Virus record (IMG/VR): IMGVR_UViG_3300033692_000022
DNA: 64,000 nucleotides
Strand: one strand, 5' to 3'
Origin: a virus
Taxonomy: Duplodnaviria; Heunggongvirae; Uroviricota; Caudoviricetes
In this document: positions 829-28,188 of the stretch, piece by piece
How positions within the stretch are numbered: position 1 is the stretch's first letter
Layout of the letters: each line of letters starts with the position of its first letter
Position numbers and translations under genes: made by a program
Notes under the pieces: generated by a model
Databases searched by the model: none
Told to the model about the DNA's origin: nothing
Seen by the model: the letters and a program-made list of their open reading frames with translations, nothing else

Positions 829-1572
829 CTATGCGACTTCATGAGCGCGTTCACTTGCATCGCCGAAGGCGCCTTTAGGAACCCTGGGTTGGATTTCTCC
901 GTCCTTGTAGACTCCAAAAGTACCGAGCGGAAAGTCAAACACGGGATACTGCTCGTCATCGTATTCTGCCAGCGTCCACGCACCATCTTCTAAGAAATAC
1001 ATGATGCGCTTACCGTGGTCTTCATTAAAATCGAACTCAAATCTTCCTATATGCGGCACAACATCATCTTCTGGTGGCCACTGATCATAGGACTCCAGTA
1101 ACTTACCCATATACTCTCCAACTTCCAGAAGGTCGAAGTCTAAATTCTCACTGACCTTCATATCGTGTGTATGAGGGCCAAACTCAAAAAACTGCGGCGG
1201 CTTCCAGCTATTATAACCCACATCATATACATGTATGTCTTTACCATTACACTCCATAGCGTAACGAGCATATAAACTAGCATTGCCGGTTAGTGTATGA
1301 GATAGGTTACAGACAAAGATAACTAAGTCTGCCTCGTCTATGATATCCAGCATTAACCTATCTTCCCTTTCAATAAAGTCACTTGCCTGCTGGCCCTCAA
1401 ATCCTTGATAGATATCATCCAAGAAACCAACATTAAGATCTGGTATGATTATCTCCTTGTCTTCCTGTCCATTAATTGTACTTAAGATACTTTTGGAGCT
1501 ATTTACTACATTACTCGTAGCTCCTAACGGTATCAATATCGTCTTTTTCAACGCTAAAACCTCCTTAAACAT
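829..1572 (-). CDS. hypothetical protein (247 aa)
   Basis: Long ORF on the coding strand of the left region; no diagnostic motif recognised. Confidence 0.7.
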   Translation of the reverse strand: MFKEVLALKKTILIPLGATSNVVNSSKSILSTINGQEDKEIIIPDLNVGFLDDIYQGFEGQQASDFIEREDRLMLDIIDEADLVIFVCNLSHTLTGNASLYARYAMECNGKDIHVYDVGYNSWKPPQFFEFGPHTHDMKVSENLDFDLLEVGEYMGKLLESYDQWPPEDDVVPHIGRFEFDFNEDHGKRIMYFLEDGAWTLAEYDDEQYPVFDFPLGTFGVYKDGEIQPRVPKGAFGDASERAHEVA

Positions 1573-1652
1573 AATAATCTTACTGTTTTGTTTTCTAGCT
1601 TCTATATACTAACTTTTATATGCCGTGAGTAACTTTATTATGGATTTAGTGG

Positions 1653-1690
1653 CAAAAAGGCCCTTTTTAGAGGTATTATATATATAGAAG
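1653..1690 (+). promoter_or_regulatory. 38-bp putative phage promoter motif, copy 1 (antisense to the left-hand genes)
   Basis: CAAAAAGGCCC-N8-GGTATTATATATATAGAAG; copies with the same spacing at 11817 and 13841. Confidence 0.6.
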
Positions 1691-2077
1691 GTGATACTCG
1701 CTGACCGCGCTTCGTAACTCGTTCCTAAAGTTAACACCATTCGTCTTCTTGATTTGTACGACCTGGATATAAAAACAAGCGGCGCAAGACAAGCGGGATT
1801 CAAATCTATAACACATTAACTTACATAAAATACAGTAAGTACAAACCAAACTGAAACATCATCTTCTAACACTTATTGTAACATAGTTGCGTTTCAGATA
1901 CAAGACACAGAGATGAAACACATACCATATTATCTGTCACGGTTAACTATGTCTACCTACTATGACTTAAATAAGTGGCGGCGCAACAAGGAACACTACC
2001 AATGAGTAGACTCTCCCAATAGATAGACAAAGGACTCTAATAGTATAAAGACTCTATCCACTATAGGACATAGTAAC

Positions 2078-2308
2078 TTAAGCAACTCTGTTAACATTAC
2101 TATTACCTACTTCCCTTACTCCTGTAATCAATGACTCTGTACCATCATCTACATCAATGATTACATGCTTACCAGGTTCCAGTTCCTTTACAGCAACAAC
2201 ATCATAGTCTCCTCGTGCCTTGTTATAGACATCAACTAACTCTTCACCTTCACTTACAAACTGACTGATCCCTCTAAATCCAAGTGACTCACAATTAACT
2301 ACATACAT
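2078..2308 (-). CDS. hypothetical protein
   Basis: ORF with a GGAGGAG RBS. Confidence 0.65.
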   Translation of the reverse strand: MYVVNCESLGFRGISQFVSEGEELVDVYNKARGDYDVVAVKELEPGKHVIIDVDDGTESLITGVREVGNSNVNRVA

Positions 2309-2606
2309 GATTATATCTCCTCCTGTTTGTCTCTATTTGCCTTCACAAAACTAATGTCTTTACCACAATAAGGACATTCTTTCTTATACATAACTAATCA
2401 CACCTCACCAGTAACTACTCTAAGACCCTTTAGGGGAGAATTAGACCTCTCTATGTGCTAACTAATGCTTCCAACGAGTCTAGGCAATATAACGGTAAAG
2501 AGACCTGCTCCCTCCCTACCGCGGGGAAAAAGGATGCCGAAAAGCTATACGACAAGCGTCATATAAGGCACAGGAGCAGGTTTTATCGTCTCAAAGGTAG
2601 ATTGAC

Positions 2607-3086
2607 CTACCTAGTCTTTTTGCCCTCCCGTAAGAGGCGTTTACGGACATGACACAGTATTGTTCCCATTATAGCCTCTGACTCGTAATTGGTACGTGGG
2701 ACTAGTTCTGAGCCGTTGTAATCGATGTAGAAGTTAAAGCGTCTGGTTTGGCCACCAGCCGAAATATCACCTTCCACGTATGACAGGGATGAGGCAGGGT
2801 CGCCCCCTAGAGCGTTGCCAAGTTTATTAGGGTTGATTTTCACTCTAAGACGTGTTATATTCATACTGGACAAGTCGTTAGCCTGGTAATTGAGATACCA
2901 GGGGCTGTCCGAGCTGTCGATAGGGTTGATTTCCTCTAGGAAGACCCGTAAAGTCTTACCTTGAGGAGTAGAGACGGGGATTACTTGTTTGCCGAAGGTT
3001 GTGTGGAAGAAACTATCACCGGCTATCTTGTATTCCCCGGCCCAACCCTTAACTTTAACAGTGTCACCTTTAGTTACATATGCCAT
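2607..3086 (-). CDS. hypothetical protein
   Basis: Start moved to ATG 3086 (MAYVTKG...), which follows a GGAGG RBS. Confidence 0.7.
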   Translation of the reverse strand: MAYVTKGDTVKVKGWAGEYKIAGDSFFHTTFGKQVIPVSTPQGKTLRVFLEEINPIDSSDSPWYLNYQANDLSSMNITRLRVKINPNKLGNALGGDPASSLSYVEGDISAGGQTRRFNFYIDYNGSELVPRTNYESEAIMGTILCHVRKRLLREGKKTR

Positions 3087-3087
3087 G

Positions 3088-3327
3088 TTACTTAGCCTCC
3101 TTTCTAGGAAGCTCTTCTTCTTCAGTACCTTTACCCTTGTTGTAACCAGCTTTGAAATCATCTATTACTGATTCCTTGGCTGCGCTGACCTTACTGCCAG
3201 CACTGGATGACTTCTCGGCTATCTTCTCGATGCCGGCGCCACCCAACTCGTCCAATTTCTTAATGCCTGAAACTGTCTTACCAACTAAACTGCCAGCACC
3301 TCTGATAATCTTTTTACTTAATCTCAT
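3088..3327 (-). CDS. small Lys/Ala/Gly-rich protein with FKAGYNKG motif
   Basis: ATG 3327 after an AAGGAG RBS; shares the FK[AD]GYNKG motif with 7997..8491. Confidence 0.6.
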   Translation of the reverse strand: MRLSKKIIRGAGSLVGKTVSGIKKLDELGGAGIEKIAEKSSSAGSKVSAAKESVIDDFKAGYNKGKGTEEEELPRKEAK

Positions 3328-3649
3328 TAATACCACTTCTCCTTTCTGCTTTCGCAGGGTCATAGTTATTAATTGCCTCTCTAACCATCTCGATAAACAT
3401 CTTCTCATAATCTAAGTCGCAGTCAGCATAAATCTCTCTGACCATGAACTTTGCCTCGGTAAAAGCAAGGCGCGCAGAGTCCCCAGAAACCTCTAACCAG
3501 ATAGAACCATTGTCTCTAACAACTATATAGCCATCGTTATCTAGTAACGGTAGGCCCTTGTGCTGCCCTGACTCCATTACCTTCCAGAAACCCTCTTCTC
3601 TTACGTCAGCAATAAATGCGTGACGCTTACTGTTTAACCCTCTAGGCAT
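3314..3649 (-). CDS. hypothetical protein
   Basis: ORF with a GGAG RBS, downstream of copy 2 of the bipartite element. Confidence 0.7.
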   Translation of the reverse strand: MPRGLNSKRHAFIADVREEGFWKVMESGQHKGLPLLDNDGYIVVRDNGSIWLEVSGDSARLAFTEAKFMVREIYADCDLDYEKMFIEMVREAINNYDPAKAERRSGINEIK

Positions 3650-3719
3650 TTATACCACTCCTTAGTTGTAATATCTTACTTAGACTATAAAAACAAAAAG
3701 AACAAAACTAACTTACCCA

Positions 3720-3766
3720 AAACACATCCATGGCTGCCGCAGCGCGTCAAATGGTCTTCTTGACGC
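3720..3766 (-). promoter_or_regulatory. bipartite element, copy 2
   Basis: AAACACATCC-N15-CGTCAAATGGTCTTCTTGACG. Confidence 0.65.
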
Positions 3767-3877
3767 AGTGAGGACAGACATGATAGTCTCTTAGTAGGAC
3801 GATAAGACCACATCTAACCTAACCATCAGGACAATAGCTTATCTTAAAGGCCAGCAGAACGAACCGAGTGTACAAGC

Positions 3878-3960
3878 ACCCGGCCCGAAGGGCCTTTACT
3901 GTAAAGAGATGGCCCGGACGGTGAGCTGATAACTACCCACCTACCCGGGCCCGAAGGGCT
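3878..3960. repeat. two GC-rich C-GAA-G triloop hairpins in direct repeat
   Basis: GGCCC-GAA-GGGCC at 3882-3894 and GCCC-GAA-GGGC at 3949-3959, each preceded by ACCCGG. Confidence 0.6.
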
Positions 3961-5351
3961 TACTTAGTATATCCGTAAGCCTCTCTTACTTGATCAGTTA
4001 AGAACTGAGCAGTGTATTTATTGTTTAAGTGGTTCTCGCCGTCCTTATTGAAGAACTGGAGTGATCCGTTGTAGTACACAGCCGCGAACTGTGCTTTCTT
4101 ACCATTAACGGCCTCCAGTTCTAATTCTGCCACTAAGGTACCATTATTGATACCCTTTAAAGTATCTCTGGTCTTGCTGATGGCCCAGTCATTCAGGCCA
4201 TGACGAATATCGGTACTGGTACTAGTTTTAGTACTGGTACTCTTCTTAGTTTCTTTTGGAGTACTCTTCTTAGTATCATAAGTCTTATCCGCGAAATAAT
4301 CTGCGGCAGGAACAGGTTTCATCTGTCTACGGCCATTAATCTTGACTACCATACCATCAACTACTTCTACTACCTCCTTATCTCCCTCTGTCTTTTTGAT
4401 AGGGTTGATCCCTTCTGTTTGAACCTCATTTACATTAGGATCTTTCTCTTCTTTCTTCTTAATGGTGGAACCAGGATTCTCAAACTCTTCAAGCTCTCTC
4501 TGCTTCTGCTTGAACTCAGCTTCAGCTTTCTTGTATTCACGTCTGAGGTCATCTAGCAGCTTCTTCTTAATACTGTCTGGCACCTCATCGGTTGTGACCT
4601 TGGTAAGTGCATCCTCAAAGTTGAACTCAATCTTTCCGTTATAGAAGACCGCATCACCATAAATACTGCTACCATCTGTTCTAGTTAGTGCAACTGTACC
4701 AACTAAATCTTTATCTGTTAGCTCCTCGTGATAGTTAGAATCGATCACATAGTAATCAGCAATACCAGATTCTACTGCTTCCTGCAGCTGTTCTCCTGAG
4801 ATTAAGATCTCTTCATCTCCTTCCTCTATTAATGCAAGCTCGTTCTTATAGGCTCTTAACAGCCCGGCTTTAACATTAGCCCAGACTGCAGAGTTTAATC
4901 TACGACCATCTGTTTCCTGGATTAGTCCTCCGTCCTTCATTGAGACCTGGATGTGCCTGTCTGCTCCAACAGACTGCTTGACTGTGATATCAGCAACATA
5001 TGTCTTACCATCTAGGGTTACAGACTCGTCACCTAAATAGAAAGCGTTAACTCTCGCCTCCTCTACGATACCAGAGTCTTTTAAGATCACTCTATTATCG
5101 TTTTTAGTTTCTTCCACTTCTTCCCCCTCCTTTTCTTTTGTTGTTGTTTCTTCCTCTTCCTGGGTCAGTTCGTCTTCAAGAGCATCTAAGATATTAGCAG
5201 CACGCTTTTCTCCCACACCTTTGATAGATAAAAGGCCGCCACGAGAAAGCTCTACTTCCTCGATACCTTCCTCTGCAGCATTCTTATACATATTAGCAGT
5301 GATTAAGTCCAGGTCAGCAAGTCTCTCAACAGTAATTGTAGTAGTTTTCAT
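3960..5351 (-). CDS. acidic protein with N-terminal helix-hairpin-helix DNA-binding motif
   Basis: LLSIKGVGEKRAANI fits the HhH consensus; start moved to ATG 5351 after GGAGG; contains an S/T-rich stretch encoded by a GTAC array. Confidence 0.65.
   Translation of the reverse strand: MKTTTITVERLADLDLITANMYKNAAEEGIEEVELSRGGLLSIKGVGEKRAANILDALEDELTQEEEETTTKEKEGEEVEETKNDNRVILKDSGIVEEARVNAFYLGDESVTLDGKTYVADITVKQSVGADRHIQVSMKDGGLIQETDGRRLNSAVWANVKAGLLRAYKNELALIEEGDEEILISGEQLQEAVESGIADYYVIDSNYHEELTDKDLVGTVALTRTDGSSIYGDAVFYNGKIEFNFEDALTKVTTDEVPDSIKKKLLDDLRREYKKAEAEFKQKQRELEEFENPGSTIKKKEEKDPNVNEVQTEGINPIKKTEGDKEVVEVVDGMVVKINGRRQMKPVPAADYFADKTYDTKKSTPKETKKSTSTKTSTSTDIRHGLNDWAISKTRDTLKGINNGTLVAELELEAVNGKKAQFAAVYYNGSLQFFNKDGENHLNNKYTAQFLTDQVREAYGYTK
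4211..4276. repeat. 6-bp periodic GTAC array inside a CDS
   Basis: cggtac tggtac tagttt tagtac tggtac ... gagtac; units match the array upstream of parA. Confidence 0.55.
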
Positions 5352-5391
5352 AATTATCCTCCTGGCTGATTGAGGAGCCACCCTATATTAT

Positions 5392-5404
5392 TTTAATGAA
5401 TCTA
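5392..5404 (-). promoter_or_regulatory. 13-bp motif TAGATTCATTAAA, copy 2
   Basis: Identical to 739-751; upstream of the HhH protein gene. Confidence 0.5.
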
Positions 5405-5463
5405 TTAATAGATAAAAAAGAGCCAGATACTTATTGTGCGCCTCTGAGCCGGGCGCAGTGAGT

Positions 5464-6414
5464 TTACTTAAAGTTAACAGCCACACCTGCCAGATAGACT
5501 CTGGTCAGATGCTGATTCCATCTACCGCGCTCAGGTAAAACAATACGCGGCGAATAAAAGGGGCAATCATCAGCATGGTATTCAAAGTCACCATCTCTGA
5601 TCTCAGACATGTTGGTATGCTTTCCTCCAGTTTCCACTGAAAAGTAAGCATTATCTGAGTAAGTCCCTGATCCCTTAATGCGTTTCTCACCGTTAAGGAA
5701 CATATGGCCTTTCATGCCGTGCAGGAGTCCATGGTCTTTCTCTGCTGCCCAGTTTCCAATAGCAGCGGCGCCATCATCCAGGTTTTCACCTGTCATGGCA
5801 CACTTATACTTAGACTTTTCTGCATCACCAGAGACAGGGCCAGCTGGAGGTTCTACATACTCTTTATTGATACACTTCTTGCATGTAGGAAACTCCTCAT
5901 CACTATCTTGGTGATAGAATCTGTTATCCACATCATCATGCTTCTGAGTTAATATCAAACCTAACTTACGCCACATAGCAACCTTAGCGGCACCCTTCAG
6001 CTTCTTGCGGATATAACGCAGTCCACTATCAGAATCAATCTTGCCGGCGACAGTCCCCTTAATATCAGAGACACTCTTAACGACAGACACTTTCTTATCC
6101 GCCTTCAGGACGCCAGGCTTTTCTAAACCAGAAGCAACAGGAACAACAGTTAGCTGCTCCTGCTTGATGTCGCTGAAGTTCTTGTAAGTCTTAATGTCTA
6201 AGACTATCTTAACCAATGGCTCATCATACCATTCACCATCGATTTCGAGTCTATTATGGACTCTTAAGATAACCTCCCCAAGAAATGATCGCTTCCAGGT
6301 TTTATACTGGTCACCACCATTTCCCGTATTCTTATTAACAATCCTAACCGTCTCAACAGTGACCTCGAGTCTATCGAGGCCAAATTTACTTAAATAAACT
6401 GACATTAATATCAC
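5464..6414 (-). CDS. hypothetical protein with Cys/His motifs
   Basis: 316-aa ORF with CKKC and HxxxC motifs; GGAG RBS. Confidence 0.7.
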   Translation of the reverse strand: MILMSVYLSKFGLDRLEVTVETVRIVNKNTGNGGDQYKTWKRSFLGEVILRVHNRLEIDGEWYDEPLVKIVLDIKTYKNFSDIKQEQLTVVPVASGLEKPGVLKADKKVSVVKSVSDIKGTVAGKIDSDSGLRYIRKKLKGAAKVAMWRKLGLILTQKHDDVDNRFYHQDSDEEFPTCKKCINKEYVEPPAGPVSGDAEKSKYKCAMTGENLDDGAAAIGNWAAEKDHGLLHGMKGHMFLNGEKRIKGSGTYSDNAYFSVETGGKHTNMSEIRDGDFEYHADDCPFYSPRIVLPERGRWNQHLTRVYLAGVAVNFK

Positions 6415-6428
6415 TCCTTTCTAAGTGA

Positions 6429-6599
6429 CTAAAATGGGATTTCTACGTCTTCTACATCATTGTCTTGAGAATCAGGTCTAAAAACATGGATGCGGCCATT
6501 ACCGCGCTTTTCATTAAGGGCCAGATCTGCAAGCCTCTTATCTTCTTCATCTAAGACTTGCTCACCGCCCTCTATCCATGTATAATCAAATAGAGCCAT
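6429..6599 (-). CDS. 56-aa protein ending in an SSB-like acidic tail (DNDVEDVEIPF)
   Basis: Translated by hand (below the ORF-track cutoff); GGAGGTG RBS; fills the gap between neighbouring genes. Confidence 0.7.
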   Translation of the reverse strand: MALFDYTWIEGGEQVLDEEDKRLADLALNEKRGNGRIHVFRPDSQDNDVEDVEIPF

Positions 6600-6632
6600 G
6601 GGTTATCACCTCCTTTCGTTGAGGATTGTGGA

Positions 6633-6818
6633 TTATGCAAATAAGGACATCTGAACAAAGTCGTCTTGAACTTTCGGGCGCATAGGCCAACCCTTTTTAG
6701 CAGCATCGCGTGCTATCGCATAACGCTGCTTATAGGGCATATCCTGCCAACGGTCCATATTATAGCCGTTAGCACTCCACCAGCCTTTGCCCTTAGAGAC
6801 TAAGGACTGTTCGTGCAT
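6633..6818 (-). CDS. hypothetical protein
   Basis: ATG 6818 after GGAGGTG; overlaps the upstream stop codon. Confidence 0.6.
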   Translation of the reverse strand: MHEQSLVSKGKGWWSANGYNMDRWQDMPYKQRYAIARDAAKKGWPMRPKVQDDFVQMSLFA

Positions 6819-7234
6819 TATTCCACCTCCAATCCGAGAGCGGGACGAATAACACTTGGCCAACCATGTTCTCTCACTGTGGCCATGAGGTCAGAATCGT
6901 AGCCACTAGTGAACTTGTAAGCGGTCTTGGGCCCTTGTGCGCTCCAACGCACCTCTAGCTCAAGGCCGTATTCTCTATAAACAGCCTCTTTTATCTCCTC
7001 TATGGTATGAGGGATATCGGCGGTACCAACATATTCACGGTACCACTTCTTCTGGTCCTCGTCTCTAGTACGAGCCCGCTTTCTACGGTCTCTTTTACTA
7101 GAGAGGTCTACCTTAGAGGACTTCTGTTTAAACTGGGCCTTACTATAATACCCCCTTCTACTGTCATGCCCCCTCTTCTCAGCGCTTATCATACAGTTAA
7201 CTACATCACGATCATGCTTCTCATTAAATAACAT
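6818..7234 (-). CDS. hypothetical basic protein
   Basis: ORF in a tightly packed leftward operon. Confidence 0.65.
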   Translation of the reverse strand: MLFNEKHDRDVVNCMISAEKRGHDSRRGYYSKAQFKQKSSKVDLSSKRDRRKRARTRDEDQKKWYREYVGTADIPHTIEEIKEAVYREYGLELEVRWSAQGPKTAYKFTSGYDSDLMATVREHGWPSVIRPALGLEVE

Positions 7235-7499
7235 TATTAATAACCTCCTCTAGTTTTGTTTTGTCAATATCATAGGCAGAATTAGCCCTATCTACTAGGT
7301 CTTTAACTCTGTCTCTTGCTATCTCTGAACCAGAATCTAGTAATATTAGATCATAGCAGTGAGAACGCCTGTTATATTCAGTATCAATTGAGTATCTATC
7401 GTCTATTATTTGCTGATTTAAGTCGTGATAACTATCAAATTTCCCCACAAGATCCTCCATCTGCCATATCAGATTAATCAAATAAAAGTTCTCCTTCAT
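7224..7499 (-). CDS. hypothetical protein
   Basis: ORF coupled to both neighbours; AGGAG RBS. Confidence 0.65.
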   Translation of the reverse strand: MKENFYLINLIWQMEDLVGKFDSYHDLNQQIIDDRYSIDTEYNRRSHCYDLILLDSGSEIARDRVKDLVDRANSAYDIDKTKLEEVINNVI

Positions 7500-7783
7500 T
7501 ATTTATCACTCCTTTCTTTTAATACCGGTACTCTAACAGTCTCACCAACAGCCAACATGAGTGAATCAGACCCACCATTCTCCTGCTTAAACAAATAAAC
7601 TAACTCATTAGTATTACAGGAGCTATCATTGTACTCCTGGACTATATTCCACACACGCTCCCCATTGCCCACCTTGTGCATGACAACAGAGTAATCATCA
7701 GTCTCTCCTACACCCATAACACCAACAACAACAAAAGACCCCAGCATGATAGCCAGGGCCATAATAGCAATAATCTTCTTCAT
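7499..7783 (-). CDS. membrane-anchored LysM protein, YneA-like
   Basis: N-terminal hydrophobic helix (MKKIIAIMALAIMLGSFVVVG) followed by a LysM pattern (HKVGNGERVWNIV...LAVGETVRVP). Confidence 0.7.
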   Translation of the reverse strand: MKKIIAIMALAIMLGSFVVVGVMGVGETDDYSVVMHKVGNGERVWNIVQEYNDSSCNTNELVYLFKQENGGSDSLMLAVGETVRVPVLKERSDK

Positions 7784-7800
7784 TTGTATTCCCCCTTCTA

Positions 7801-7995
7801 TTAGTGCACACCAAATAACTGGCGCGCGTCCTCACCCAACACAACAACTGGATAGCCCTCCACAGAGCCGTCTTTACGTACCCTGTAGAGCGCATCCCCT
7901 ATTAACTCATAGTGGTCAAAGCACCCTAAGCAGGGCACCTTGCCACCAGTACGCCCTATGATAGAGCGCACCTCATACTGTTGTAGTCTTCTCAC
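7801..7995 (-). CDS. hypothetical protein
   Basis: Small ORF filling the gap in the operon. Confidence 0.5.
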   Translation of the reverse strand: MRRLQQYEVRSIIGRTGGKVPCLGCFDHYELIGDALYRVRKDGSVEGYPVVVLGEDARQLFGVH

Positions 7996-7996
7996 C

Positions 7997-8491
7997 TTAT
8001 TTCACCCCCTTGTTATATCCATCTTTAAATGCTCCTACTAGAGACCCAAAGAACCCAACAGAGCCTTTAGCCCCACTGGTGACAGCCTTCTTAGCTCCAC
8101 CCACTGCCTTACCAGCAAGGCGGGTAGTGCCTGTAGCAGTCTTACTAACTAACTTGGCAGTACCACTAACTGCACTGCCACTCTTCTCAGCCACTGTCTT
8201 AGCGGCCTTCTCAGTTTTAACTAAAGCCTTAGCCCCATTCTCCCCTAGCCTCTGAGAGAAAGGCTTCTTCACCTGGTCAATAGCCCTCTTTGCTTGCCTT
8301 GCTGTGTCTGCATAGTTAGTAGTCTTATCCATAGTCTTCTCCTCCTTATCTTCTTTAACTGCCTCTTCTTCAGCTGCCATGAACTCATCAAACTGCTTAT
8401 AACTGTCAGTAGGCACATCTTCTAGCTTTGTTACCTTCTTAGTCTCTTTCTTCTTAGCCTCTGCAAAATAGATACCGTTTACTTCAATCAT
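7997..8491 (-). CDS. Lys/Ala-rich amphipathic protein with FKDGYNKG motif
   Basis: First gene of the leftward operon; strong AGGAGG RBS. Confidence 0.7.
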   Translation of the reverse strand: MIEVNGIYFAEAKKKETKKVTKLEDVPTDSYKQFDEFMAAEEEAVKEDKEEKTMDKTTNYADTARQAKRAIDQVKKPFSQRLGENGAKALVKTEKAAKTVAEKSGSAVSGTAKLVSKTATGTTRLAGKAVGGAKKAVTSGAKGSVGFFGSLVGAFKDGYNKGVK

Positions 8492-9024: not shown

Positions 9025-9795
9025 ATGCCTGCAAAAAAGATTGCGGTAATGAACAACAAAGGAGGGGTCGGAAAATCCACTACTTCAGTAAACTGCGCTC
9101 ACGGGTTGACCAAGTTAGACTACAAGGTCTTAATAGTCGACATGGATGATCAAAATAACGGCAGCAGTTTTTTAGGCTTTCACCAAAAGGATTATGAAAA
9201 AACTCTTTATGACATGATCAAAAGAGATGACAATCCAAGCCCAGCAAGGTTCGAAGAAGTAGTAATTAATGCTAGGGAAGACTTAGACCTACTTCCTAAC
9301 TCAAAGATGAAGTTTTTGGAAGGGTATCTTACCAATTACAGAAGAATCGACATTGCAATTAAGATGATCTTAGGAGATGAGATAGAAGAGGCTTACGATT
9401 TTATAATATTCGACTGCGGACCAAAGAGATCAATGGTAAATGATGCAGTTTTATTATATGTTGATTCCATAATCATGCCGGTCCAGACTGAAGGAGCAGC
9501 TGTAGAATCAGTCGGTAACATGTATGAATATCTAGGAGACTTAGAACTAAGCGGAGATATGATTAAGATAGTAGTTCCAACAATGTATGATCAGAGAACA
9601 AATGAATCCAAAGAGAAGTATGAGGTGCTTAAGGAGATATTCAAGGACGAAGAGGACATCTTGACTAAGCCAGTTCACAGGCGAACTAAGATAACTGAAT
9701 CTACATCTATCGGAAAGACAGTCTTTGAATACGATAAAGAAGCGGCGAACCAATACTTTAAAGTTTTAGAAAAGGTGGTGGAGAGAATTGTCTGA
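9025..9795 (+). CDS. parA: ParA/Soj-family partition ATPase
   Basis: Deviant Walker A NNKGGVGKSTT, VLIVDMDDQ, YDFIIFDC; short type Ib form with no N-terminal HTH. Confidence 0.92.
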   Translation: MPAKKIAVMNNKGGVGKSTTSVNCAHGLTKLDYKVLIVDMDDQNNGSSFLGFHQKDYEKTLYDMIKRDDNPSPARFEEVVINAREDLDLLPNSKMKFLEGYLTNYRRIDIAIKMILGDEIEEAYDFIIFDCGPKRSMVNDAVLLYVDSIIMPVQTEGAAVESVGNMYEYLGDLELSGDMIKIVVPTMYDQRTNESKEKYEVLKEIFKDEEDILTKPVHRRTKITESTSIGKTVFEYDKEAANQYFKVLEKVVERIV

Positions 9796-14792: not shown

Positions 14793-14928
14793 ATGTGGAG
14801 CTAAAAACTGCTTATTTAATAATGGATCTCTATACTATAAGCCAAATGTAGAAATTAAGTTTATAAGTAAAATTAAGGATGGCAGTCTGGCACAAACTTT
14901 TGAATGTGCCGACTACTATCCCAGATAA
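14773..14928 (+). CDS. 51-aa Cys-containing protein
   Basis: Translated by hand: MEKQRIKCGAKNCLFN...ECADYYPR; overlaps the upstream stop. Confidence 0.45.
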   Translation: MEKQRIKCGAKNCLFNNGSLYYKPNVEIKFISKIKDGSLAQTFECADYYPR

Positions 14929-15001
14929 ATCCCCTCATGTATATTTCCCTCCACTAGAGGTGTCACCATGATGGCGCCTCTAAACACTACTTCAAGGAGG
15001 T

Positions 15002-15187
15002 ATGATAATGAGTAAAACTTTAAATCAAAATAGACTTGTTGATGTTTATGTTCATAACCGACTTGATGAGGTAACAATTTCAAGGCGCAACACTCAACAG
15101 GAAATAAATAATAGAACTAAGAGTTTGGCAATGGAAAGACTAAAAAAGAATAACAAGATGCAACACAATCCAAAACAGCCCTTATAA
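15002..15187 (+). CDS. hypothetical protein
   Basis: AGGAGGT RBS. Confidence 0.55.
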   Translation: MIMSKTLNQNRLVDVYVHNRLDEVTISRRNTQQEINNRTKSLAMERLKKNNKMQHNPKQPL

Positions 15188-15484
15188 CATTATAATAAGA
15201 CAAGGAGAGGGTATAAATGATAGGAAGAATAAAAGAATTTTTGATGACAGGCAGAGACTACAATGACAGACTGGAAAGAGTAAAGGAAGAAAACTTCCAG
15301 AAAGTTTTTAAGCACGGTAACTTCCAATAAGATTATAAGACTATAAGAGGAGTGATAACTATGAAAAAGATTACCTGTGAAGATTGCGGATATGAAAATA
15401 GAATGTCAATAGATCACTACTGCAGTAAATGCAGCAACGAATTAATGTAAAATAATATGGGGCCTGCAAACGGCCCCGTTAATA

Positions 15485-15559
15485 TGCAGGGAGGATGCTG
15501 GCTTCCACGCAGGGCTCATGCCCCTGTCAACGCGAGTTCAATTCTCGCCCCTGCTTCCA
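15485..15559 (+). tRNA. tRNA-fMet(CAU), initiator type
   Basis: Anticodon arm CAGGG-CTCATGC-CCCTG with three consecutive G-C pairs; unpaired position 1:72; GTTCAATT T-loop; encoded CCA. Confidence 0.8.
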
Positions 15560-15560
15560 A

Positions 15561-15605
15561 CTGACTGTAGCCGAGTTTGGTAAGGCACTCCGTTTGGGAC
15601 GGAGA
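15561..15605 (+). tRNA. tRNA-Pro(UGG), 5' part (interrupted gene)
   Basis: Acceptor strand CTGACTG, D arm, anticodon arm CTCCG-TTTGGGA-CGGAG; no T arm follows. Confidence 0.8.
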
Positions 15606-15619
15606 AAGGATAGTTTAAC

Positions 15620-16261
15620 ATGAACTTAAATACTGCATTTAAAGAAATAACTAAAGTCAATAAAGATAATTATAAATGTCCAATTTGCGATGAAATTTTT
15701 TCAAAGTACGGAATAAAAAATCATATAAGATTAAAACATACTGAAGACGGTCAGATTAATTATCGTAACAATATGAAAAAAATTAAAGAAATTGGATGTA
15801 AATATTGCGGGAAAAAAGTAAAATCAAACGGTATTAAAAATCATGAAAGATATTGTTACCTCAATCCAAGCAACTATAAAGAATGCCCAGTTTGTGGTAA
15901 ACCTATAAAAAATTATTCTAATAATATAACTTGTTCACACTCTTGCGCAAATACCTATTCTCGAAGTGGAACAGACAATGGTAACTGGAGTAATGATAGT
16001 TACAGAACAACTTGTTTTATGTTTCATAAAAAAGAATGTGTAGTTTGTGGGGAAGATATATTAGTAGAGGTCCATCACTTAGATGAGAATAAAAGTAATA
16101 ATAACCCCTCAAATCTAATACCTCTTTGTCCTACACATCATAAATACTGGCACAGCAGACATAAGCACTTAATACATGAATGTGTTATAGATTATGTATA
16201 TAAATTTAAAGAACAAAATAAAGAAGAGTTAAAAAAATACAAGAATGACTTCATTGATTAA
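15620..16261 (+). mobile_element. HNH homing endonuclease with N-terminal zinc fingers, inserted in tRNA-Pro
   Basis: CPIC..HIRLKH, CKYC..HERYC, CPVC..CSHSC and CVVC..EVHHLDENKSNNNPSNLIPLCPTHH (HNH motif). Confidence 0.88.
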
Positions 16262-16273
16262 TATGTTTTATTT

Positions 16274-16304
16274 ATCGTAGGTTCAAATCCTACCACTTAG
16301 ACCA
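16274..16304 (+). tRNA. tRNA-Pro(UGG), 3' part (interrupted gene)
   Basis: ATC-GTAGG-TTCAAAT-CCTAC-CACTTAG-A-CCA; CACTTAG pairs with CTGACTG at 6 of 7 positions (one G-U, one C-C mismatch). Confidence 0.75.
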
Positions 16305-16308
16305 ATAT

Positions 16309-16385
16309 GAGGCTATGGTGGAATTAGTTAACACATCGGACTTTCACTCCGAAGACTCTCGGTGCGAATCCGGGTAGCCTCACCA
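16309..16385 (+). tRNA. tRNA-Glu(UUC)
   Basis: GAGGCTA/TAGCCTC acceptor; TCGGA-CTTTCAC-TCCGA anticodon arm; CCA. Confidence 0.88.
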
Positions 16386-16389
16386 ATAA

Positions 16390-16464
16390 TGTCCTGTAGC
16401 TCAGTGGTAGAGCAGCTCACTGTTAATGAGAAGGTCGCTAGTTCGAATCTAGCCGGGACAGCCA
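16390..16464 (+). tRNA. tRNA-Asn(GUU)
   Basis: TGTCCTG/CGGGACA acceptor; CTGTTAA loop; GTTCGAATC T-loop; GCCA end. Confidence 0.9.
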
Positions 16465-16468
16465 ATAT

Positions 16469-16544
16469 GGAAAGATAGCTCAGTAGGTAGAGCGGGGGTG
16501 TGAAGTACCCCAAGTCAAAGGTTCGATTCCTTTTCTTTCCGCCA
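16469..16544 (+). tRNA. tRNA-Phe(GAA), atypical anticodon loop
   Basis: GGAAAGA/TCTTTCC acceptor; GGGGT-GTGAAGT-ACCCC anticodon arm; CCA. Confidence 0.8.
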
Positions 16545-16547
16545 TAT

Positions 16548-16623
16548 GCTGATGTAGCTCAACTGGCAGAGCACCTGTTTTGTAATCAGGAGGTTGGAGG
16601 TTCAAGTCCTCTTATCAGCTCCA
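16548..16623 (+). tRNA. tRNA-Thr(UGU)
   Basis: GCTGATG/TATCAGC acceptor; TTTGTAA loop; CCA. Confidence 0.9.
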
Positions 16624-16640
16624 AAATTATACAAGCGGCT

Positions 16641-16791
16641 TATAGGGAATAAAGGAAGAAGTAATAACTGAAGTTTTATACTCGTAAGATATGATCAGTC
16701 TTATAGGTATGAAATGAGAGTTTAAAGATTAGATGCGGTCCGCGGAAACGCACTAATTAATTCGTGAGTTCGAATCTCACCCCTATAGCCA
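16641..16791 (+). ncRNA. tRNA-like RNA with canonical 3' end and non-canonical body
   Basis: GTGAG-TTCGAAT-CTCAC-CCCTATA-G-CCA at 16764-16791; TATAGGG at 16641 is the perfect acceptor partner; no standard anticodon arm found. Confidence 0.45.
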
Positions 16792-16911
16792 AACAAGTTT
16801 ATGCCCGAAGATGACGGACATGTAAAATAGAGAATATCATCTACACGTATGTTTGGATAATCATACACATTATGGTTAATAACTTATACCACACCACTAA
16901 TCACCTCAATT

Positions 16912-17021
16912 GCAGTAGAGGACGGAACAGGCATCTGTCGCGCCCCTAAGTGGGTTAGGATTAATATTCGGTCAATAAAGGACCGTCTAAAGAGATGTGG
17001 GATACGCCGCCCCACCTACTG
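16912..17021 (+). ncRNA. candidate structured small RNA
   Basis: GCAGTAG/CTACTGC closing stem, GTGGG/CCCAC arm next to it and three internal hairpins. Confidence 0.4.
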
Positions 17022-17030
17022 CTTATGCTA

Positions 17031-17119
17031 TGCAAGGATGGCCGAGTGGATGAAGGCGCCAGACTGTAAATCTGGTACACGCAGACCCAACGGAGGTTTA
17101 AATCCTCCTCCTTGCACCA
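17031..17119 (+). tRNA. tRNA-Tyr(GUA)
   Basis: GCAAGGA/TCCTTGC acceptor; CCAGA-CTGTAAA-TCTGG anticodon arm; long variable region; CCA. Confidence 0.88.
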
Positions 17120-17120
17120 T

Positions 17121-17196
17121 GGACCCGTAGCTCAACTGGCAGAGTCGCCGGCTCATAACCGGCTTGTTGTAGGTTCGAAACCTGCCGGGTCCACCA
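17121..17196 (+). tRNA. tRNA(CAU), probably Ile2 (lysidine type)
   Basis: GGACCCG/CGGGTCC acceptor and CGG-CTCATAA-CCG resemble Firmicute tRNA-Ile2; CCA. Confidence 0.8.
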
Positions 17197-17372
17197 AATA
17201 TTAACTATGTAAAAAGGGGAGTTAAATATGTTTAAACTATTTCTAAAGACTTTCGGAGTTTATAAAGGAGAAACAATAATTAGGCACGGATCACTATCTG
17301 GAGTCTATGAAGTTTATGAGTTCTTCGGTAAAAACTTCGAGGTTAAAAAATAAAAACCAGGAGTGATTTGCC

Positions 17373-17606
17373 TTGTGTGACAAATTCATTAAGTATATAT
17401 CTAGGACAAATAGCACAGAAAAACTACTTAAAGAATTTACGATAATAAATAATATAATAAAAAACGAATTGAAAAGACGATATATAGATTTAGACTTGTT
17501 AAGAGAAATGTCTTTAGACTTGTTAAGAGAAATGTCACACAAATTAGCAATCGTATCCGACAAGATAATAAAAGACAAAACAGAGAGTGATGATAATGGA
17601 ACTTAA
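17373..17606 (+). CDS. hypothetical protein with 24-bp tandem duplication
   Basis: LDLLREMS occurs twice (DNA repeat 17489-17536). Confidence 0.55.
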   Translation: MCDKFIKYISRTNSTEKLLKEFTIINNIIKNELKRRYIDLDLLREMSLDLLREMSHKLAIVSDKIIKDKTESDDNGT

Positions 17607-18183
17607 AATAAACCCCGATTTACACCCCCCTCAAAACGAATCTTCTACTCACTATCTTCTCAAGCTGGTCGCGAGCAAATACCTCAAAGATAAAAAGAAC
17701 TGTAAATTCATCGCGACCGAGGTATATGTAGGAGAAGAAAAAAATCCCTATTTAAAATCAAATTATAAAACAACAAAACAAATAACCGATGTAGTCGGAA
17801 TGACAGTAAGAGGAAGGCAAAAGAAAAGAACCGCATTCAATATAGAAGTTAAAGTATCCAAAGAAGATTTCAAGGCAGGTTTTACTCTTGCAGGAGACTA
17901 CAATTATATTATGGCCCCTAAAGGAGTATTAAGCAGAGAAGATATGCCTCCGAAGGTGGGCCTTGTTGAGGTTGACCTGGATGAATTAAACTTCGACCTT
18001 GATGGAGTACAGTCTGTTAAGAATGCAAGTAAGATGCACAGTGAGGTAGTTAAGTTTAGAAGTAACTATTACAGGCAGAGCTATTACAACTTTCTAGAAA
18101 GTCAGATAGTTGCAAGCCTCACCAATGAGGTAATATACAACAACCCGTGGTTTTATCAAAATATAACTATAGAGGATGAATAA
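17587..18183 (+). CDS. PD-(D/E)XK nuclease-like protein, MmcB-like
   Basis: ATEV...TDVVG...IEVKVSKEDF. Confidence 0.65.
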   Translation: MMIMELKINPDLHPPQNESSTHYLLKLVASKYLKDKKNCKFIATEVYVGEEKNPYLKSNYKTTKQITDVVGMTVRGRQKKRTAFNIEVKVSKEDFKAGFTLAGDYNYIMAPKGVLSREDMPPKVGLVEVDLDELNFDLDGVQSVKNASKMHSEVVKFRSNYYRQSYYNFLESQIVASLTNEVIYNNPWFYQNITIEDE

Positions 18184-20508: not shown

Positions 20509-22107
20509 ATGGCTCCAGAATTAACAGAACAAGAACTTAATATGATAGAGATACTTGAGGATCCTGTTAAATTTGCATCTGCAGAACTCGACTGGCACGC
20601 CAGAGAATATCAGGAAGAGATGCTGGGGTCAGATAAAAACAGAGTAGTAATCAGAGCCGGTCGTCGTATTGGTAAGACTGACCAGGCTGTTATTAAGATG
20701 TTACACGCGGCATATACAAAAGAAGATTTTAGAGTATTAGTAGTTACTCCCTTTGAGTCACAGATTAAGCACATATTCCAGAGACTTAGAGCTCTAATCA
20801 GAAAAAGCGATATGGTTAAACAGAGTGTTACCAGAGATATCAGATCCCCCAACAGAATAGAATTTGGTAACGGCTCATATATTGTAGGTTTTACCGCTGG
20901 AACTACCGGCGGAGGCGGCGCAGCAAGCGTTCGTGGACAGGGCGCGGATTTTATTTATCTTGATGAGGCAGATTATTTAGGCGATGACGATATAGATACA
21001 ATCATATCTGTTGCTTATGAGGATGCTGAAAATGTAAGAATCTGGGCAACATCTACTCCAACAGGACGCCGAGGGCGTTTCTGGCAGTGGTGTACCAAAA
21101 AGGAATTGGGATGGCACGAATTTCATTATACATCTCATGTTAACCCTACCTGGTCTGAAGTTGCCGAACGAGATGCACGCAATAACCTTACAGAGCTTGG
21201 TTATGTACACGAGATTCTAGCAGAGTTTGGGGATATGGCAGAAGGGGTATTCCAGCGTAAGTTTGTCGAGAAGGCAGCAGAGGCTGGAAGAGAATTAAAC
21301 TTAGAGTTAGTAGACGATATAGACTATCAAGCTATTAGAACAATCGGTATCGACTGGGACAAGGCTGGGGCGGCAACACAGATTGTTGTAACAGAATATG
21401 ACCCAGAAATAGACAAGTTTTATCCTATCCACAGAGCAGAGATTCCATCTGGAGAGTTCACTTATTCAAATGCTATAGATACAATAGTGGCCTTGAACGA
21501 AGAATTTAATCCAGAATTTATTTATGCAGATCGTGGACACGGAGAATATCAGATAGAGTCACTTCATAAATATGGAATGGCTCATCCTGAGACCGGTCTT
21601 GGAGACAAGGTAAAAGGTATAAGTTTCTCAGATAAGATTAAGATTCCTGATCCACATACAAAAGAGATCGGGAAAAAGCACATCAAACCGTTTATGGTAA
21701 ATACATCGGTTCTACTGTGTGAGAATGAGAGACTGGCCCTGCCATCAAATGATGATCTGATAAAAGAGCAGATGCTCGATTATTATATTGAAAGAGTAAC
21801 TCCAACAGGAAGACCTGTTTATAATAGCGATAATGAGCACGCATTAGATGCTTTCATGCTCAGTCTACTGGCAATGCAGTTAGAGTTTACAGATATAGCA
21901 AAATCAAACTTCTCAAGCAGTGTGGCCACAGCGCCTCGCCTCGACTATGCAAAGCATAGAGAAAAGAAGCAGAAAGAGAAAAAGAAGAGCGAAAAAGCCA
22001 AAGTAGCCTTCTTAAATGCAGGTAAGTCAAGAGGAGTTAATGCTATAAGATCAAGTTTCAGCAGAAACAGAACTTTGAAGAAACCTCCAAAACGGAGTAG
22101 TTTCTAG
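20509..22107 (+). CDS. terL: terminase large subunit
   Basis: Walker A RAGRRIGKT, Walker B IYLDEAD, coupling motif TSTP, RNase H-like nuclease IGIDW...HALDA. Confidence 0.95.
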   Translation: MAPELTEQELNMIEILEDPVKFASAELDWHAREYQEEMLGSDKNRVVIRAGRRIGKTDQAVIKMLHAAYTKEDFRVLVVTPFESQIKHIFQRLRALIRKSDMVKQSVTRDIRSPNRIEFGNGSYIVGFTAGTTGGGGAASVRGQGADFIYLDEADYLGDDDIDTIISVAYEDAENVRIWATSTPTGRRGRFWQWCTKKELGWHEFHYTSHVNPTWSEVAERDARNNLTELGYVHEILAEFGDMAEGVFQRKFVEKAAEAGRELNLELVDDIDYQAIRTIGIDWDKAGAATQIVVTEYDPEIDKFYPIHRAEIPSGEFTYSNAIDTIVALNEEFNPEFIYADRGHGEYQIESLHKYGMAHPETGLGDKVKGISFSDKIKIPDPHTKEIGKKHIKPFMVNTSVLLCENERLALPSNDDLIKEQMLDYYIERVTPTGRPVYNSDNEHALDAFMLSLLAMQLEFTDIAKSNFSSSVATAPRLDYAKHREKKQKEKKKSEKAKVAFLNAGKSRGVNAIRSSFSRNRTLKKPPKRSSF

Positions 22108-26103: not shown

Positions 26104-28188
26104 TTGATGAAGATACTCCAGAAAATCGGAAACTTCTTCAATCGTGTGATAAACGTCAGGAACGCATCTCCTCAAGATTATAATCCCAAGAATGTAAGAA
26201 TTAAAAAGGTTGGGCGGGCAACGCTCACTAGTGGTGGAGGTGGAGACACTTTCGAACCACCAGAATGGGACTTTAATCAGATAGATGATGCCTATTCTAC
26301 ATCGTCTTATACAAGACAGGCAATCGACAAATACATCGAGCTGATGTTCAAGGAATCATACGATTTTGTGGGGCCAACTCCAGATACAATCGAATATATA
26401 AGAAAAAGATTTAAGATGATGGCTATTGCTACAGGTAAACCTGTTAAACAGTTCTTTACTGAGATGGCAGAAGACTTAGTTAAATACTCAAATGTATTTA
26501 TAGTAAAAGCCAGACAGAAAAACTCCAAAGGTCTGCAAATGCAGGGCAAGAGTCTTACAGGAGTTACAGGAAATCAGCCAATAGCTGGTTACTTTCTATT
26601 AAGTCCCACAACCGTAAGTATTCTTCGAGATGAACACGGAACTATAAAGAAGTACGAACAGGAAGTGCCCGGTAATGGAGATCCGATAGAGTTTAAACCA
26701 GAAGATGTAATACATATCTACTATAAAAAGGACAGAGGTAAGGCATTTGGACAACCATTTATCCTGCCGGTTCTTGATGATATAAGAGCTTTAAGAGAGG
26801 CAGAAGAGAGCGTTTTAAGACTTTTATACAGACATCTCTTCCCATTATATCAGTATAAAGTAGGTATTGCAGAGCCTGGATTCGAGGCTGATGATAAAGA
26901 GATTGAAAATGTAAGACAGCAGATAGAGAACATGCCGGCAGACGGCGGTATAGTCACACCAGAGAGGCATGATATAAAAGTTATCGGTGCTGACGGTGAG
27001 GCGATAGACGCTAAAGATTATCTTGAGCATTTCGAAAAGAGGGTCTTTACTGGTCTTGGGGTTTCATCTACAGTAATGGGACGCGGCGATACAGCCAACC
27101 GTTCAACGGCTGATAACATGACAAAGGAAATGCACGACAGAATAAAAGCCTTCCAGGAAGTAATGTCAACATTCGTAAATGAATTTGTAATCCAGGAGAT
27201 GCTTTTAGAAGCCGGGTATGATCCTATAGAAAATCCAGATGACGCAGTAGAATTCCAGTTTAGAGAAATAGATACTGAACTTAAGATAAAGAAAGAAAAC
27301 CATGCAGTCTACAAGTATGAACACAATGCAATAACTGAAGATGAAATGAGAAAAGAGTTAGGCTTAGATCCTATTCAAGATAGAGCCTTAATGCACGTTA
27401 ATTTAGTTGGCGGCGCAAACCAGGATGGAGATAGTGAAGGTTCTTCTGCTGAGACAGATAACAAAAACAAACCAGAAAACCAGAGCGGCTCCAGGGACGC
27501 ACCAAAGACTAAAGAGATGGCAGAGGCAATGACCTCAAGTGCATTCACTAAGGAGCTTGACTATAAGGTCCATGAAGAAAAACTCTTAAAATATTATGAT
27601 AATGCTAAAAAAGACATACTTGATTTAACAGAGAAATTCTTCGAGGATGAAAAGAAAAAATATCCTAATAATACTCAGAATATAAAAGCCACTCTAAAAT
27701 CACTTTCCAGAACATCACTTTCTGCAAGCGAAGATAAGTTTAATACAGCCTTCCATTCAGGAGTAATTGAAGCGATGGGAGACTTAAAGGCTAAATCACT
27801 TCCTGATATATCCTACCAGACAGCGAGTATGAAGTTAGAAAGAACCCACGATAAATACTTTAATAAGCTCGCAGACGAACTTGCAGATCTAATCTCAGAA
27901 GCCATAAAAGAAAATGAAAAAGACAGAGCTAAAAGTAAAGTCAAAAACCTACTCAATGCTCATGAATATAGAATAAGATTTATTGCATTTACAGAGCTCA
28001 TGCACTCATTTAACTATGGGTATGCACTGACTGCTAAAGAACTTGGAGAAAAGGAAATAACAGTAAAGCACGAAGAAGATGCTTGTGATTTATGTGCAGA
28101 AAAAACTGCCATTGATTTAACAGTTGACAACCTGTATGAAGCGGTCCCACCGTTCCATACAAAATGTAGCTGCACTTTATATAAATAA
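26104..28188 (+). CDS. portal protein with C-terminal MuF/gp7-like head-morphogenesis domain
   Basis: Portal-like core (PEDVIHIYY...GQPFILPV) between terL and the protease; C-terminus RFIAFTELMHSFNYG...CDLC...PPFHTKCSC. Confidence 0.85.
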   Translation: MMKILQKIGNFFNRVINVRNASPQDYNPKNVRIKKVGRATLTSGGGGDTFEPPEWDFNQIDDAYSTSSYTRQAIDKYIELMFKESYDFVGPTPDTIEYIRKRFKMMAIATGKPVKQFFTEMAEDLVKYSNVFIVKARQKNSKGLQMQGKSLTGVTGNQPIAGYFLLSPTTVSILRDEHGTIKKYEQEVPGNGDPIEFKPEDVIHIYYKKDRGKAFGQPFILPVLDDIRALREAEESVLRLLYRHLFPLYQYKVGIAEPGFEADDKEIENVRQQIENMPADGGIVTPERHDIKVIGADGEAIDAKDYLEHFEKRVFTGLGVSSTVMGRGDTANRSTADNMTKEMHDRIKAFQEVMSTFVNEFVIQEMLLEAGYDPIENPDDAVEFQFREIDTELKIKKENHAVYKYEHNAITEDEMRKELGLDPIQDRALMHVNLVGGANQDGDSEGSSAETDNKNKPENQSGSRDAPKTKEMAEAMTSSAFTKELDYKVHEEKLLKYYDNAKKDILDLTEKFFEDEKKKYPNNTQNIKATLKSLSRTSLSASEDKFNTAFHSGVIEAMGDLKAKSLPDISYQTASMKLERTHDKYFNKLADELADLISEAIKENEKDRAKSKVKNLLNAHEYRIRFIAFTELMHSFNYGYALTAKELGEKEITVKHEEDACDLCAEKTAIDLTVDNLYEAVPPFHTKCSCTLYK

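Follow-up and report, generated by a model that had tools for sequence, protein, structure and literature searches.

In bacteria, group I introns interrupt tRNA genes within the anticodon loop, the tRNA-Leu(UAA) gene of cyanobacteria being one example. In archaea such as Nanoarchaeum and Caldivirga, the breaks in split tRNAs and in tRNAs with non-canonical bulge-helix-bulge introns fall at sites other than the anticodon loop, some of them close to the variable region, and such tRNAs need a bulge-helix-bulge, long G+C-rich complementary leaders, and a splicing endonuclease together with a ligase. Among phages, the HNH endonucleases F-TflI, F-TflII, and F-TflIV, encoded in the tRNA region of T5, act on the tRNA-gene DNA of relatives that lack them. 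Finally, SegB of phage T4 is a free-standing GIY-YIG homing endonuclease in a tRNA gene cluster that recognizes the T-psi-C stem-loop of tRNA genes and drives the inheritance of its own gene together with the neighbouring tRNA genes (PMC2330249).

The locus described here lies in a 64,000-nt stretch of DNA (hereafter, the window) from a large uncultured tailed phage, whose terminase (20509-22107) and portal (26104-28188) genes are also in the window. On the evidence of its sequence, a free-standing HNH homing-endonuclease gene is situated inside the phage's own tRNA-Pro(UGG) gene, and the split tRNA-Pro is most likely a dead gene. Like that of SegB, the HNH gene is a selfish element encoding an endonuclease within the tRNA cluster of a phage, and it is present in some and absent from other related phages; the target of SegB is also inside tRNA genes, at the T-psi-C stem-loop, and the flanking tRNA genes are co-inherited with it. 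SegB therefore provides a precedent for the T-arm region as a target. Unlike the HNH enzyme of the window, SegB belongs to the GIY-YIG type, sits between tRNA genes, and bisects none of them. Its specificity is relaxed, and many tRNA genes are cut by it, whereas the HNH family of the window tracks tRNA-Pro(UGG), its predicted cleavage target. The F-Tfl enzymes of T5, which are likened here by description only, are of the HNH type and are found among phage tRNA genes, as in the window, but they are intergenic. The locus shares with group I tRNA introns a tRNA gene interrupted by a sequence able to carry a homing endonuclease ORF; unlike those introns, the insert has no intron core, holds just 30 nt of non-coding sequence, and lies in the variable loop. 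With archaeal split tRNAs it shares a break outside the anticodon loop, but none of the required archaeal features is seen at the locus or, as regards the splicing enzymes, among ten proteins of the window's non-structural part.

The locus reads as two parts of one tRNA-Pro(UGG), all on the plus strand, with the HNH gene between them. The 5' remnant (15561..15604) comprises the acceptor strand CTGACTG (15561-15567), followed by U8 and A9, the D arm (15570-15586), and a complete, uninterrupted anticodon arm, CTCCG TTTGGGA CGGAG, with the anticodon UGG (15588-15604). In place of the variable loop is a junction (15605..15619) made up of a ribosome-binding site, AAAGGA (15605-15610), and a spacer up to the ATG at 15620 that opens the HNH ORF (15620-16261; 213 aa). 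A 15-nt spacer (16262..16276), delimited by the sequence and by alignment with the closest relative phage, runs from the HNH stop codon to the T stem. The 3' remnant (16277..16304), placed by a profile match and the same alignment, supplies the T arm GTAGG TTCAAAT CCTAC (16277-16293), the 3' acceptor strand CACTTAG (16294-16300), A73 at 16301, and CCA at 16302-16304. The break is located at the boundary of the variable loop and T stem, after an intact anticodon arm, and the ORF accounts for 642 of the 672 nt between anticodon stem and T stem. Directly upstream of the 5' remnant is a tRNA-Met(CAU)-like gene (15486..15559, plus strand), and downstream are intact genes for tRNA-Glu, tRNA-Asn, tRNA-Phe, and tRNA-Thr (16309..16623, plus strand; called by ARAGORN and Rfam), the first of which, tRNA-Glu, begins 4 nt past the 3' remnant.

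In its native, split form the tRNA-Pro is called by neither ARAGORN nor Rfam in the window. When the halves were joined in silico, ARAGORN returned tRNA-Pro(tgg) for 370 of the 437 joins, and a profile made from 83 phage tRNA-Pro genes matched both 15561-15614 (model positions 1-55; E = 4e-7) and 16275-16302 (model positions 48-75; E = 6e-4). The original prediction of a tRNA-Pro(UGG) split in its variable loop by an HNH gene that fills nearly all of the gap, with its ribosome-binding site at the break, is borne out by these matches and coordinates. The halves amount to exactly one tRNA, with no stem missing or duplicated, and the joined molecule is predicted still to fold as a cloverleaf at -19 to -21 kcal/mol. 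No further tRNA-Pro was found in the 64-kb window by ARAGORN, Rfam, or the 83-gene profile. A hidden T arm at the start of the ORF that would complete the 5' part was also considered and rejected, as no pairing is possible there and both ARAGORN and Rfam were silent.

Several other RNA-like elements are found in and near this tRNA cluster. The tRNA-Met(CAU)-like gene at 15486-15559 has three G-C pairs at the base of its anticodon stem. Its D arm is short and odd, positions 1 and 72 are mismatched, and the gene may be that of an initiator-like tRNA; Rfam gives it a weak tmRNA-clan match (19.6 bits), and ARAGORN calls the corresponding gene of the closest relative (7324-7396), through which the window copy was aligned, as tRNA-Met but not the window copy itself. 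A tRNA-like element at 16641-16791 (plus strand) combines an oversized body, from which the anticodon loop is absent, with a T arm, acceptor strand, and CCA of textbook form (GTGAG TTCGAAT CTCAC CCCTATA G CCA). The closest relative has a similar element at about 7600-7730, with GAGAGTTTAAAGATTAG ... CTAATTAATTC plus a T arm, and because it has been kept there, the element is conserved rather than random debris. A skipping-rope RNA (RF02924) is located inside the cluster just before tRNA-Tyr (16911-17023, plus strand), scoring 61.1 bits against a gathering score of 36.7 and carrying a 31-nt insertion in one hairpin; there was no match to it in the corresponding stretch of the relative. Finally, a ParA/MinD-type ATPase (9025-9795, plus strand; Pfam AAA_31, E = 1e-36) is encoded elsewhere in the window, hinting at plasmid-like partition.

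Judged by its sequence, the HNH gene is an intact endonuclease gene. The protein matches Pfam HNH_2 (E = 1.9e-5), and also HNH_3, as well as PHROG HNH families (best E = 1.8e-12). It retains each of the 30 columns that are invariant among 38 aligned homologues, including every invariant Cys, His, Asp, and Asn, the HH..D..N..N motif, and the CxxC pairs, and its N-terminus carries C2H2-type and Zn-ribbon fingers. In all, 478 homologues were retrieved at E <= 1e-3. An identical protein is on record from two contigs, one of them 202,621 bp long; the closest relatives are 50-63% identical, and no closer one was found. Since no sigma-70-like promoter was found on the plus strand between the upstream tRNAs and the ORF, the HNH gene is probably read from the tRNA-cluster transcript and translated via the AAAGGA at the junction.

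The closest relative phage, L002 (IMG/VR contig 3300035034_002798; a 171-kb record), provides the comparison with an HNH-free allele. Its terminase and its upstream 221-aa protein are each 84% identical to those of the window. Downstream of the small Zn-ribbon gene that both phages share, L002 has an unbroken tRNA-Pro(UGG) at 7244-7320, which scores 54 bits against Rfam tRNA and is the single tRNA-Pro of the record, and no HNH homologue was found in the record. The window's 5' remnant matches this gene at 39 of 44 bases, and the anticodon stem has undergone a compensatory change (C29-G41 in the window vs. U-A in L002). On the 3' side, the T arm is identical at all 17 positions, and the last bases (TC) of the spacer at 16262..16276 match the end of the L002 variable loop. 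The junction at 15605-15619 matches L002 at 9 of 17 bases, and may represent a decayed copy of the variable loop and T stem-loop. The order of the genes is swapped, with the tRNA-Met-like gene preceding tRNA-Pro in the window and following it in L002, and this difference indicates that the tRNA cluster has been rearranged beyond a mere insertion in situ. Besides L002, the terminase relatives have no tRNAs nearby.

Two side observations concern this comparison. In the window, a G+C-rich hairpin (GGGGCC-TGCAAAC-GGCCCC; 15459-15477) directly follows the small Zn-ribbon gene and occupies the place of the intact tRNA-Pro of L002. The L002 record itself (IMGVR_UViG_3300035034_002798; 170,948 bp) is its own mirror image, with every locus appearing twice (e.g., L002/L003 and L165/L166) at coordinates that sum to about 170,949, and IMG/VR classes its ends as "inverted terminal repeats". 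This record is probably an assembly fold-back, and the true size of L002 would consequently be about half.

The features of the window gene are those expected of a homing endonuclease gene: its catalytic motif is intact, members of its family lie at or beside the putative target in many unrelated genomes, and it is absent from L002, where the putative target is uninterrupted, although the intact tRNA-Pro of L002 does not have an identical position within the cluster.

The acceptor stem is where the two remnants disagree. When joined, they give the pairs C-G, U-A, G·U, A-U, C·C, U-A, and G-C, so that the single C-C mismatch originally reported is confirmed (C5·C68) and is accompanied by a G3·U70 wobble; C1-G72 and A73 are retained. 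The 5' strand, CTGACTG, is identical to that of L002 at 7/7 positions. On the 3' side, L002 has CAGTCAT and the window CACTTAG, with 3/7 positions differing even though the adjacent 17-nt T arm is identical. CACTTAG would instead pair perfectly with CTAAGTG, the 5' strand of a tRNA-Pro from an unrelated phage (L001), and resembles that gene's own 3' strand, CGCTTAG, at 6/7 positions. Each of the two alleles has Watson-Crick pairs at 3:70 and 5:68 (G-C and C-G in L002 vs. A-T and G-C in L001), but the window has G·U and C·C at these positions. Most simply read, recombination at the HNH gene has joined remnants derived from different alleles, a mixing that is to be expected because homing co-converts the flanks. 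Whatever their origin, the acceptor strands are not co-adapted, and the stem has not been kept paired across the insert by selection. A single mismatch plus a single wobble is not in itself lethal for a tRNA, and this counts against the reading of the locus as a pseudogene.

The HNH family provides further context. About 240 loci with HNH relatives were collected from IMG/VR, metagenomes, and GTDB genomes, and approximately 100 non-redundant loci with at least 38% identity and enough flanking sequence were classified. In 99 non-redundant loci, Pro(UGG) makes up 71 of the 177 tRNAs within 160 nt of the HNH gene, vs. 15 of the 473 at distances above 300 nt. In 61 of the approximately 100 loci, the HNH gene is directly adjoined by a complete tRNA-Pro on its own strand, which is upstream in 25, downstream in 25, and on both sides in 8. 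A complete tRNA-Pro was noted on each side of the HNH gene in L025, L027, L028, L112, L110, L005, L045, L046, and L050. Where the copy is downstream, the HNH stop codon often falls at U8-A9-G10 of the tRNA-Pro. These associations mark the family, which is large and mostly phage-borne, as one specialized on tRNA-Pro(UGG). In the HNH tree the architectures are intermixed, and the window HNH stands on its own branch with no close relative.

Several of these loci retain the scars of insertion. In L014 and L102, the order is 5' remnant, HNH gene, complete tRNA-Pro, and 3' remnant; the acceptor strands of the remnants are mutually complementary (CGGAACG/CGTTCCG and CGGAGAT/ATCTCCG, respectively). 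Both are broken in the variable loop/T stem, L014 at profile positions 47/48, the same place as in the window, and L102 nearby, at positions 44 and 50. In L086-L088, a 3' remnant consisting of T arm, acceptor strand, and ACCA follows the complete copy in all three loci, and a partial 5' remnant is present in at least L086. In L030, a complete tRNA-Pro precedes the HNH gene, and the resident T arm and acceptor strand directly follow the stop codon, a 3' side much like that of the window. Likewise, 5' remnants of differing length are found in L024, L032, L035, L039, and L037. As read from these arrangements, the family usually leaves its HNH gene within a tRNA-Pro of which either the 5' or the 3' part has been duplicated, so that a complete copy survives and the broken resident gene persists as 5' and/or 3' debris.

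The window resembles these cut-and-replace cassettes (L014, L102, L086-L088, and L030) in its HNH family, its tRNA-Pro(UGG) target, the variable loop/T-stem site, and the remnants left behind. Unlike the cassettes, which bring a complete tRNA-Pro, the insert in the window consists of the HNH gene alone, and therefore the broken tRNA-Pro has not been replaced locally. Among the approximately 100 loci, the window is the only one in which a 5' fragment, HNH gene, and 3' fragment occur without a complete tRNA-Pro, and the bare split is therefore no recurrent design that is being maintained. Relative to known HNH-tRNA elements, the locus is unusual only in lacking a rescue copy. Searches for close relatives with the same split returned none: an exact 26-nt search of IMG/VR gave only the unrelated, intact tRNA-Pro of L001, a single-protein search gave one distant HNH, and a GTDB scan gave only two reasonable HNH matches, in Acidobacteriota MAGs, its other matches being distant HNH domains that come for the most part from MAGs of archaea and other organisms.

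Two further observations were made on the family. The C-terminal tails of some HNH homologues (e.g., GFEPAT, RIRTCD, and DSNLC; proteins P0005, P0007, P0030, P0056, and P0084 among them) are translated tRNA T arms, some of them antisense, indicating that gene callers run HNH ORFs into adjoining tRNA genes. In L016, a tRNA-Pro-like gene downstream of the HNH gene (about 2940-3010) carries C in place of U at position 33, its acceptor stem pairs poorly, and it is not called by ARAGORN; from its sequence, it looks like a decaying replacement copy.

Taken together, we consider it probable (roughly 80%) that a homing HNH endonuclease directed at tRNA-Pro has turned the tRNA-Pro of this locus into an insertional pseudogene. 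The gene would be dead because the HNH gene stands alone between two remnants of different alleles, with no part of the tRNA duplicated. Of the two alternatives in the original prediction, the one in which the insertion killed the tRNA is supported by the intact gene of the HNH-free relative, by a homing family that usually brings a replacement tRNA, and by acceptor strands that are not co-adapted. By analogy with SegB, the enzyme would, in a mixed infection, make its cut near the T arm of tRNA-Pro alleles that lack the HNH gene; repair from the HNH-bearing genome would then transfer the gene, along with its flanking sequence, to the target; and the split locus would be immune to its own enzyme because the target is disrupted. 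As to how the bare split arose, candidate routes are a primary insertion of the HNH gene only, deletion of a replacement copy, and recombination between an upstream-copy and a downstream-copy element. If two such elements recombined within the HNH gene, loci with a tRNA-Pro on both sides would be the reciprocal product, and such loci exist (the 8 mentioned above).

The alternative that survives best, although we regard it as unlikely, is that the halves are debris of cut-and-replace and that a complete tRNA-Pro resides elsewhere in the approximately 200-kb genome, so that tRNA-Pro has not been lost. Most family members do keep a complete copy, the clusters are rearranged by these elements, as in the swapped order of the Met-like and Pro genes relative to L002, and of the contig, which is about 202 kb long, the scanned window represents 64 kb. 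However, in all other loci with a complete copy, that copy is directly beside the HNH gene and never far away, and the L002 record has only one tRNA-Pro.

Less probable still is that the interrupted gene gives a working tRNA-Pro, either through some unknown splicing of the 670-nt insert or as a split tRNA whose two pieces, produced by a cut of the transcript within the insert, stay together. In one variant, the precursor would be processed by RNase P and at its 3' end with its acceptor and T arms paired around the 670-nt insert, which would then be cut or spliced out to leave a two-piece or rejoined tRNA. If true, no split tRNA, and none spliced other than by group I introns, would have been known before except in archaea and eukaryotes, and the range of split and spliced tRNAs would extend to phages. 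Several features are in its favor: the halves sum to one complete tRNA that ARAGORN accepts when joined, the D and anticodon arms are well formed and include the compensatory C29-G41, C1-G72 and A73 are present, and no replacement tRNA-Pro is found within 64 kb. The clean sum of the halves, however, is also seen in L014, where the remnants lie beside a replacement copy, and is therefore a property of the insertion site rather than a sign of function. Likewise, the acceptor stem, which would be the only contact between the two pieces, is the very place where C·C and G·U occur, and the arrangement is without a second example among the approximately 100 loci of the family.

The mechanisms that such a functional gene might use also fare poorly. 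Rfam gave no match to an intron or ribozyme (group I, group II, or self-cleaving) at 14800-17800 at E <= 10. A group I intron in particular was rejected: there is no Intron_gpI core match at that threshold, the ORF leaves only the 30 nt noted above, and the break is outside the anticodon loop, in agreement with the earlier view that a group I core would not fit. The flanks of the ORF had also been proposed to pair and loop it out; the duplex does exist, at -5.5 kcal/mol, but it is equalled by 17% of neighbouring windows and 18% of shuffles, and the pairing is AU-rich and at chance level. A bulge-helix-bulge is absent from the minimum-free-energy fold of a mini-precursor, where 5-bp and 6-bp AU-rich helices are seen with an internal loop between them. 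Leaders that hold the halves together were ruled out, as the fold and duplex tests were at chance. No RNA ligase or RNA endonuclease domain was found in ten proteins of the window's non-structural part, namely the products of a minus-strand block (832-8491), of two ORFs on the plus strand as far as 10554, and of the ORF on each side of the tRNA cluster, and bacteria are not known to have a splicing endonuclease. In the literature, no paper was found that joins "split tRNA", "phage", and "HNH endonuclease". The unusual excision or split-tRNA route that had been offered as the other possibility is thus left unsupported, given the lack of an intron or ribozyme match, the missing bulge-helix-bulge, the chance-level flank pairing, and the singularity of the arrangement.

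Finally, an assembly chimera in which two tRNA-Pro-bearing haplotypes were misjoined at the HNH gene would fit the acceptor strands that look like different alleles, and metagenome assemblies can join strains at repeats, but it is hardly credible given that the identical HNH protein comes from two contigs, the junctions lie in unique sequence with the ORF intact, in frame, and behind a well-placed ribosome-binding site, and natural recombination explains the allele mixing equally well.

The insertional pseudogene, as the preferred reading, offers a base-resolution view of what happens when a homing endonuclease arrives without a spare copy: the tRNA is bisected in its variable loop, and this clean bisection removes the phage's local tRNA-Pro. 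Annotators should be warned that half-tRNAs of this sort are debris rather than exotic genes. More broadly, the HNH family documented by the approximately 100 loci repeatedly splits, duplicates, and reshuffles tRNA-Pro genes, and such reshuffling helps to account for the tRNA fragments and odd gene orders of phage tRNA clusters.
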